DNA of 64,000 bases, taken from NCBI RefSeq assembly GCF_024502345.1, contig NZ_JALDNN010000001.1; one strand, written 5' to 3'. Both the position numbers and the translations under genes were made by a program. The stretch comes from Escherichia coli (GTDB lineage Bacteria > Pseudomonadota > Gammaproteobacteria > Enterobacterales > Enterobacteriaceae). Below are positions 26,122 to 27,637 of this stretch, piece by piece (position 1 is the first letter of the stretch; the number at the start of each line of letters is the position of its first letter). The notes beneath the pieces are model-generated. The model had not been told where the DNA came from, made no database searches, and worked only from the letters and a program-made list of their open reading frames with translations.

Positions 26122-26173
26122 GCTATTTTTCCTAAAGATGAAAATTATTAGAGTCGCATTAAAAATGAGCTAA

Positions 26174-27368
26174 GGAAGGTGCGAACAAGTCCCTGATATG
26201 AGATCATGTTTGTCATCTGGAGCCATGGAACAGGGTTCATCATGAGTCATCAACTTACCTTCGCCGACAGTGAATTCAGCAGTAAGCGCCGTCAGACCAG
26301 AAAAGAGATTTTCTTGTCCCGCATGGAGCAGATTCTGCCATGGCAAAACATGGTGGAAGTCATCGAGCCGTTTTACCCCAAGGCTGGTAATGGCCGGCGA
26401 CCTTATCCGCTGGAAACCATGCTACGCATTCACTGCATGCAGCATTGGTACAACCTGAGCGATGGCGCGATGGAAGATGCTCTGTACGAAATCGCCTCCA
26501 TGCGTCTGTTTGCCCGGTTATCCCTGGATAGCGCCTTGCCTGACCGCACCACCATCATGAATTTCCGCCACCTGCTGGAGCAGCATCAACTGGCCCGCCA
26601 ATTGTTCAAGACCATCAATCGCTGGCTGGCCGAAGCAGGCGTCATGATGACTCAAGGCACCTTGGTCGATGCCACCATCATTGAGGCACCCAGCTCGACC
26701 AAGAACAAAGAGCAGCAACGCGATCCGGAGATGCATCAGACCAAGAAAGGCAATCAGTGGCACTTTGGCATGAAGGCCCACATTGGTGTCGATGCCAAGA
26801 GTGGCCTGACCCACAGCCTAGTCACCACCGCGGCCAACGAGCATGACCTCAATCAGCTGGGTAATCTGCTGCATGGAGAGGAGCAATTTGTCTCAGCCGA
26901 TGCCGGCTACCAAGGGGCGCCACAGCGCGAGGAGCTGGCCGAGGTGGATGTGGACTGGCTGATCGCCGAGCGCCCCGGCAAGGTAAGAACCTTGAAACAG
27001 CATCCACGCAAGAACAAAACGGCCATCAACATCGAATACATGAAAGCCAGCATCCGGGCCAAGGTGGAGCACCCATTTCGCATCATCAAGCGACAGTTCG
27101 GCTTCGTGAAAGCCAGATACAAGGGGTTGCTGAAAAACGATAACCAACTGGCGATGTTATTCACGCTGGCCAACCTGTTTCGGGCGGACCAAATGATACG
27201 TCAGTGGGAGAGATCTCACTAAAAACTGGGGATAACGCCTTAAATGGCGAAGAAACGGTCTAAATAGGCTGATTCAAGGCATTTACGGGAGAAAAAATCG
27301 GCTCAAACATGAAGAAATGAAATGACTGAGTCAGCCGAGAAGAATTTCCCCGCTTATTCGCACCTTCC
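26174..27368 (+). mobile_element. IS5 insertion sequence (1195 bp) flanked by a 4-bp CTAA target-site duplication
   Basis: Terminal inverted repeats ggaaggtgcgaacaag (left) and cttattcgcaccttcc (right, reverse complement ggaaggtgcgaataag); internal transposase ORF; CTAA at 26170..26173 and 27369..27372. Confidence 0.93.
26206..27222 (+). CDS. insH: IS5 transposase InsH (338-aa form; 326 aa from the second ATG at 26242)
   Basis: ORF translation [49 protein letters not shown]... recognisable as the IS5/IS4-family DDE transposase. Confidence 0.93.
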
Positions 27369-27637
27369 CTAATTTTGATAGTGGCTATCTTGTGATTATT
27401 TTCTAATGAGCCCGTGAACTGAACCCCCCATGCTTAATATAAGGTGGAGGGAAAGGTGATTGAAAACTCACCCAGTGGGCTGATCTTTATAAAATATGAA
27501 CAGGTTGAAAAAAAAACAGTAACTTTGCTGTTTTTTATACTTAACCACTATGCATTAATGCTGCGTTATTTCATTCTACCTAAGAAAAACCAGCGTTACG
27601 CAAATGGTCAACGCTGGTTTTATCCGGTACGTTGCAA

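Follow-up and report, generated by a model that had tools for sequence, protein, structure and literature searches.

An IS5 insertion with an intact CTAA target-site duplication between the convergent genes yhiN and yhiM of Escherichia coli

RESULTS

Organization of the yhiN-yhiM Interval

The stretch of DNA analysed here, referred to as the window, comprises 64,000 nucleotides from Escherichia coli. The interval of interest lies between yhiN, on the plus strand, and yhiM, on the minus strand, two convergent genes whose assignments agree with the RefSeq annotation of the syntenic loci in strains TB06052, K-12 MC1000 and MG1655. In alleles that lack an insertion, the spacer between these genes is 317 nt long and 64% AT. 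In the window, the spacer is occupied by a complete IS5 element that is flanked by two copies of the tetranucleotide CTAA and is located downstream of both genes (Table 1). The distances to the two neighbours are unequal: the end of IS5 is 269 nt from the yhiM stop codon, and the left terminal inverted repeat (IRL) is 52 nt from the yhiN stop codon, a proximity that is absent from the first-pass annotation of this DNA.

Table 1. Features of the yhiN-yhiM interval (window coordinates; the boundaries of IS5 and of its flanking duplication were read directly from the sequence)
Feature	Position	Strand	Description
yhiN	24919..26121	+	FAD/NAD(P) oxidoreductase, 400 aa; HI0933_like, E 1.8e-96; co-oriented with ins5A
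Left CTAA copy of the target duplication	26170-26173		Direct reading; single CTAA in empty alleles
Complete IS5	26174..27368	+	1195 bp; 100% identity to RefSeq-annotated IS5 copies
IRL, GGAAGGTGCGAACAAG	26174..26189	+	IS5 left terminal repeat
ins5A (insH)	26242..27222	+	DDE transposase gene, 326 aa plus stop; ORF and Pfam match
Antisense ORFs in ins5A, at the position of the published ins5CB operon	26518-26814, 26893-27147, 26907-27173	-	Mechanical ORFs
IS5 3' non-coding part	27223..27352	+	Lower GC, 0.42-0.48; A-tracts at 27221 and 27292
IRR, GGAAGGTGCGAATAAG on the minus strand	27353..27368	-	IS5 right terminal repeat
Right CTAA copy of the target duplication	27369-27372		Direct reading; empty-allele comparison
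Hairpin CCAGCGTT/AACGCTGG, with an A-run and a T-run at its sides	27590..27617 (core)	-	Predicted intrinsic terminator of yhiM
yhiM	27638..28690	-	DUF2776 inner-membrane protein, 350 aa; DUF2776, E 1.1e-158

Anatomy of the IS5 Element

IS5 is described as an element of 1195 bp with 16-bp imperfect inverted repeats, which targets the sequence Py-T-A-Pu and generates a 4-bp duplication (PMC11677980, PMC5493358). The element in the window opens with GGAAGGTGCGAACAAG and closes with CTTATTCGCACCTTCC, forming a 16-bp inverted repeat with one mismatch between its arms, such that the imperfect terminal repeat GGAAGGTGCGAA(C/T)AAG is present at both ends. A scan with this pattern identifies two places in the 64-kb window, both of which are ends of this element, compared with zero expected from shuffled sequences; the window therefore contains a single IS5 copy. 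The length of ~1195 bp, the imperfect inverted repeats, the 4-bp duplication of the Py-T-A-Pu type, the intact transposase gene and the near-identity to the reference together place the element in IS5.

The transposase encoded by ins5A matches the Pfam families DDE_Tnp_1 (E 2e-35) and DUF772 (E 3.5e-21) and differs from the RefSeq IS5 transposase, WP_000019403.1, by one amino acid, K274 in place of R. A longer ATG reading frame of ins5A begins at 26206. In the published anatomy of IS5, the ins5CB operon is located antisense inside ins5A (PMC11677980). The three antisense reading frames of the window copy, 84-98 aa in length and generated mechanically, lie at the position of this operon; a putative ins5CB is implied by the 99.7-100% DNA identity of the window copy to functional IS5 copies. 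The 3' non-coding part corresponds roughly, with approximate boundaries, to the published internal bent/IHF region, and the IHF consensus has a single weak match, which adjoins IRL (26186-26198).

The window copy is identical over all 1195 bp to IS5 copies in strains G3/10, 74-2 and PI24 and in several plasmids, and it differs from the K-12 wbbL copy at 4 of 1195 nt (99.7% identity). ISKpn26 copies are more distant, with 69-147 positions differing from the window IS5. The IS5 copies of K-12 (insH1-11 and IS5T in yhiS) share the length, the inverted repeats, the Py-T-A-Pu duplication and the 326-aa DDE transposase with the window copy, and location is the sole difference in kind. The site that IS5T occupies in yhiS of MG1655 is empty in the window (10460-10463), which runs collinear with MG1655 through this point but has no IS5T.

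The Target Site in Empty Alleles

To obtain an empty construct, the two window flanks were joined with one CTAA, giving a sequence of 418 nt, and this construct was searched in 5426 complete E. coli genomes. A 100% match over all 418 nt is present in strain TB06052, and the construct is found in one piece (at least 80% covered) in at least 3590 of the 5426 genomes. Empty alleles were read at the insertion point in TB06052 (L001), K-12 MC1000 (L002), QDFD216 (L004) and ten contig contexts that encode the exact window YhiM (L013-L022; flank identity 96.5-98.9%). All 13, which represent many haplotypes, carry a single CTAA, reading ...AAAAATGAGCTAATTTTGATAG..., and an alignment of seven haplotypes shows that the CTAA and most of its surroundings are invariant. 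A matching flanking 4-mer would by itself arise by chance once in 256 cases. Because the empty alleles have one CTAA, the window carries a genuine duplication, and its locus has the structure produced by a single transposition without later rearrangement.

The first-pass annotation had described a complete 1195-bp IS5 with both terminal inverted repeats and identical flanking CTAA 4-mers, located about 270 bp from the yhiM stop codon, and had attributed it to a simple transposition without later rearrangement. The element and its flanks prove to be as described, now with exact coordinates and a distance of 269 nt, and the comparison with IS-free alleles that it had proposed upholds both the duplication and the simple origin. 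In mechanistic terms, the DDE transposase cut CTAA with a 4-bp stagger, these four bases were duplicated when the gaps were repaired, and the locus has not been rearranged since. The sequence and the empty sites together demonstrate these steps of cut, duplication and subsequent stability.

Sequence Context of the Target

IS5 is reported to prefer AT-rich, easily melted, H-NS-bound intergenic DNA (PMC11677980, PMC5493358). Within 40 nt on either side of the target CTAA, the AT content is 70%, which ranks it at the 91st percentile among the window's 585 YTAR sites; with flanks of 60 to 100 nt, the site falls at the 66th-75th percentile. The context thus fits the published preference, with an AT-richness that is moderate, not extreme. 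The insertion itself lifts the local GC content of the spacer from 0.38 to 0.55.

No identifiable feature is disrupted at the target. Neither the empty spacer (at E<=1) nor the vicinity of the insertion site in the window has an Rfam match, and the reading frames near the insertion site are mechanical and at most 26 aa long, with nothing larger present.

Distribution of the Insertion and Related Alleles

The right junction of the window allele was found in none of the 5426 complete E. coli genomes, the GTDB species representatives or the JGI metagenome contigs. The left junction was found in two of the complete genomes: LCP22S3_I2, which has it at the exact site, and PK8217, in which the element is ISKpn26 and the position is offset by 22 bp. 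All ten contexts that encode an identical YhiM are empty. The best flank identity to any complete E. coli genome is 99.0% (over 18000-26173). That the right junction was not found, and that the IS5 sequence is identical to copies elsewhere, suggests that the insertion is young and private to this strain. Apparent full-length matches to the locus (H1-H9) were rejected, as they consist of separate pieces joined together and do not represent the same allele; of the five examined, H1, H5, H6 and H9 contain IS5-family elements elsewhere in the pitA-yhiJ region.

A related allele is present in LCP22S3_I2 (L003, NZ_CM149864.1; IS5 at 3499-4693), in which IS5 adjoins the same CTAA beside yhiN and has the same orientation. 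Unlike in the window, the right junction of this IS5 is TTAG inside the 3' end of yhiJ, without a matching duplication, and a deletion of ~5 kb (window-equivalent 26173 to 32369) has removed yhiM, yhiL and the greater part of yhiJ. Its flank haplotype is K-12-like, and its IS5 differs from the window copy at 3 nt. Local hopping of IS5 with subsequent recombination between IS copies is a frequent cause of deletions of this sort (PMC5009759), and an intact allele such as that of the window could give rise to the LCP22S3_I2 deletion.

Further independent events that involve ISKpn26 or IS5 are observed between pitA and yhiJ. In PK8217 (L005, 3477-4671), ISKpn26 is located at TTAG, 22 bp upstream, with a deletion. 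Two further genomes, L008 (3750-4945) and QDFD216 (L004, 3747-4941), have ISKpn26-bounded deletions that end in the same yhiJ 3' region; the deletion ends in L005, L008 and L004 correspond to window positions 31347, 32297 and 32172, respectively. In L006 (3158-4353), ISKpn26 has inserted into yhiM as a simple event that duplicated TTAG, and an IS5 remnant is found between pitA and yhiN in L007 (to 3006).

These alleles raise the alternative of a genuine IS5 hotspot at this site, or of an insertion that was selected, for example as a step to the loss of yhiM-yhiL-yhiJ, and is not a product of neutral chance. We consider this unlikely. The recurrence of IS5 at the same CTAA and with unchanged orientation in LCP22S3_I2, where the flank haplotype is different and the IS copy has 3 nt differences, argues in its favour, as do ISKpn26 at a TTAG 22 bp away in PK8217 and the IS5-family insertions or deletions that several other genomes carry between pitA and yhiJ. 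The counts speak against it. Two occupied spacers among 5426 genomes compare with ~0.7 expected, a rough estimate in which 11118 chromosomal IS5-like places are spread evenly over ~5 Mb, and the difference is not significant (Poisson P about 0.16). Moreover, IS places are clonally non-independent, so an excess is not demonstrable, and common ancestry combined with recombination or IS gene conversion may account for the allele of LCP22S3_I2.

Import of the filled allele from another lineage by homologous recombination is an alternative of low probability. It draws on the mosaic nature of the region, in which identity to K-12 is 98.7% over pitA-yhiN, 95.96% over yhiM-yhhJ and 96.5% over slp-uspB, and on the observation that the spacer is 100% like that of TB06052, yet the wider flanks are only 98.1-98.3% identical. 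Against it, a donor with both junctions is absent from the complete E. coli genomes, the GTDB representatives and the JGI metagenome contigs searched. Whether the allele was imported or not, its origin is the same simple transposition.

Predicted Transcription Signals and the Probable Insulation of yhiM

A hairpin with a 13-bp stem, followed by UUUUUCUU (a U5CUU tail) on the yhiM strand, begins 20 nt past the yhiM stop codon and finishes more than 210 nt short of IS5. As a G+C-rich stem-loop that precedes a U-run just past a stop codon, it has the form of an intrinsic terminator. On the minus strand, the predicted folding energy is -22.5 kcal/mol (z -3.46), a value that no shuffled sequence out of 200 attains. 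The plus strand gives -21.6 kcal/mol (z -3.75), and the predicted terminator is possibly bidirectional. The stems are invariant in the seven haplotypes, with one variable base in the loop. A terminator consensus scanner missed this hairpin because the 12-nt loop of its core stem exceeds the scanner limit of 8 nt. The same inverted repeat was drawn past the yhiM stop codon in previous work, which described yhiM as monocistronic (PMC6604978).

A second, longer and imperfect hairpin is present in the spacer at 27404-27480 (minus strand, -29.8 kcal/mol, z -2.87; z -1.85 for 27369-27510 folded as the plus strand). Apart from a few variable positions, the haplotypes largely agree in its sequence, and it has no Rfam match. 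It could be a yhiN terminator or an unannotated structured element.

The first-pass annotation had suggested that IS5 could alter the formation of the yhiM 3' end or the H-NS silencing of the AT-rich yhiM/yhiL region. Neither proposal is supported by the anatomy of the locus, and we regard such an effect as very unlikely. The gene is separated from IS5 by the predicted terminator hairpin, and since the element lies more than 210 nt past that hairpin, a change in 3'-end formation is unlikely. With respect to silencing, yhiM is indeed repressed by H-NS, being ~10.75-fold derepressed in an hns mutant, and H-NS binds a yhiM promoter fragment (PMC2984483). IS5, with its bent DNA and IHF site, lifts the H-NS silencing of bgl and flhDC if it is inserted near the promoters (PMC11677980, PMC5493358), and here it changes the local GC content of the spacer as described above. 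However, the binding that was demonstrated is at the promoter, ~1.3 kb away and beyond the body of yhiM, which has a near-average GC content of 0.44-0.51. The AT-rich block (GC 0.30-0.38), which takes in the yhiM promoter and two DUF4049 genes, starts only near 28700, ~1.3 kb from IS5. In addition, IS5 is downstream of both of its neighbours, whereas the cases of IS5 activation described in PMC11677980, PMC5493358 and PMC11894529 are upstream insertions. The activated operons bglGFB, glpFK, flhDC and fucAO involve the same element and the same sort of AT-rich CTAA target as in the window; the difference is that IS5 is upstream of the operon in each of those cases and downstream of two convergent genes here. 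The insertion thus probably has little effect on yhiM. Insulated by its own predicted terminator hairpin, the gene should retain its 3' end and its promoter-level control by H-NS and GadE.

Two further ways in which IS5 might act on adjacent DNA were considered and rejected. A CRP-dependent fusion promoter, which at fucAO involves a CRP site in the flank at about -61.5 from the ins5A transcription start site, finds no counterpart, as there is no CRP-like site within ~140 nt to the left of IRL; the nearest match is weak and ~140 nt away, and CRP-like matches across the window are at chance level. An outward promoter at IRR was rejected as well. The search returned one promoter-like match, compared with 2.0 expected by chance, and this match (27375-27402, plus strand) is wholly host DNA that is also present in empty alleles.

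yhiN and the Possible Transcription of ins5A

It is yhiN, not yhiM, that is the gene more exposed to IS5, because its stop codon is 52 nt from the element, no terminator lies between, and its orientation matches that of ins5A. No stable structure was found in the 52 nt between the yhiN stop codon and IRL (RNA fold, z -0.58). The candidate plus-strand terminators of the spacer (27404-27480 and 27590-27617) are all now past IS5 as seen from yhiN. Severed from these terminators, yhiN transcripts should enter IS5 in the sense orientation with respect to ins5A. Those leaving IS5 at its far end would encounter the hairpin at which they would also be stopped in an empty allele.

Pins5A, the promoter of ins5A, is reported to have extremely low strength, and the nmpC promoter, which reads into ins5A, to drive the greater part of IS5 transposition in K-12 (PMC11677980). 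Transcripts from the ins5A transcription start site are reported to cross the whole of IS5 into downstream genes (PMC11894529). Given the co-orientation of yhiN and ins5A without an intervening terminator, the weakness of the ins5A promoter and the nmpC precedent, we infer that yhiN read-through transcribes ins5A, and it may drive the transposase gene of the window copy as published for the nmpC copy. In the nmpC copy, the main transposition donor of K-12, ins5A likewise lies directly downstream of a host transcription unit and in its orientation, and no terminator separates the two. The two cases differ in that IS5 interrupts the coding sequence of nmpC, for which promoter dependence is experimental (PMC11677980), whereas the window IS5 is located 52 nt past an intact yhiN, from which read-through is deduced. 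Rho could stop yhiN transcripts before or within IS5, which would weigh against read-through. If read-through does occur, the window copy may be a comparatively active donor.

Other Features of the Window

Several observations concern the wider window. Identity to K-12 along positions 1-58649 varies by segment: 98.4% over mdtF-slp, 96.5% over yhiS-uspB, 98.7% over pitA-yhiN, 95.96% over yhiM-yhhJ and 98.3% over nikR-livJ, a mosaic that suggests recombination tracts. At 37834-38651, the window has just 817 bp at the position of a 6.7-kb rhsB-yhhH-yrhC-yhhI block in MG1655, and the equivalent position in TB06052 holds a hicAB/aldolase/PTS island with boundaries at window 38548/38659; the yhhJ-nikR interval appears to be a variable integration spot. 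The chu/shu heme-uptake locus, which is located between yhiD and dctR in TB06052, is absent at window 8448-8484, as in K-12.

The first of the DUF4049 genes, yhiL (28989-30662), is an open reading frame in the window and in TB06052 and a frameshifted pseudogene in MG1655 and MC1000. Rfam matches in the window include two AgrB-family antisense RNAs that adjoin dinQ (14121-14204 and 14355-14439, minus strand) and ES205 (4616-4687, minus strand) at the gadF position downstream of gadE. A stretch of 127 nt at 59145-59271 resembles the MG1655 sequence between uspB and pitA, with ~84% similarity, and is probably a dispersed intergenic repeat.

DISCUSSION

The locus is best explained by one simple and recent transposition step that brought a canonical IS5 into a CTAA of the AT-rich yhiN-yhiM spacer, with yhiM probably insulated from the element and yhiN transcripts expected to run into ins5A, a reading to which we assign a probability of roughly 90%. 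An assembly artefact, in which a copy of the IS5 repeat was misplaced, is exceedingly improbable: the allele is unique to the window and multicopy IS5 confuses short-read assemblers, but a misjoin would not create exact junctions together with a perfect duplication of the 4 bp of a canonical target, of which the empty alleles have one copy. The insertion is an ordinary one, placing a known IS at a new position.

A more far-reaching proposal links the orientation of the element with the fate of the neighbouring genes. It holds that yhiN read-through makes the window IS5 the main donor of the strain, that the CTAA is a recurrent entry point through which the H-NS-silenced yhiM-yhiL-yhiJ block is eroded, and that the window allele is the intact precursor of the 5-kb deletion of LCP22S3_I2. 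Taken as a whole, this proposal is plausible but speculative, and its probability is rather low. In a more limited form, the window IS5 may seed IS-mediated deletions of the yhiM-yhiL-yhiJ block, as in LCP22S3_I2.

The locus offers a textbook case of IS5 target-site duplication with an empty site that can be verified. Because the allele was seen in none of the 5426 complete E. coli genomes, the insertion provides strain typing with a clean lineage marker, and beyond this use it matters little in itself. Given that recent work finds IS5 activity to be controlled by read-through from the host, and that yhiN is the exposed gene, the orientation of the insertion could nevertheless yield both an active IS5 donor and a starting point for the loss of the acid-resistance gene yhiM and of the AT-rich genes beside it.
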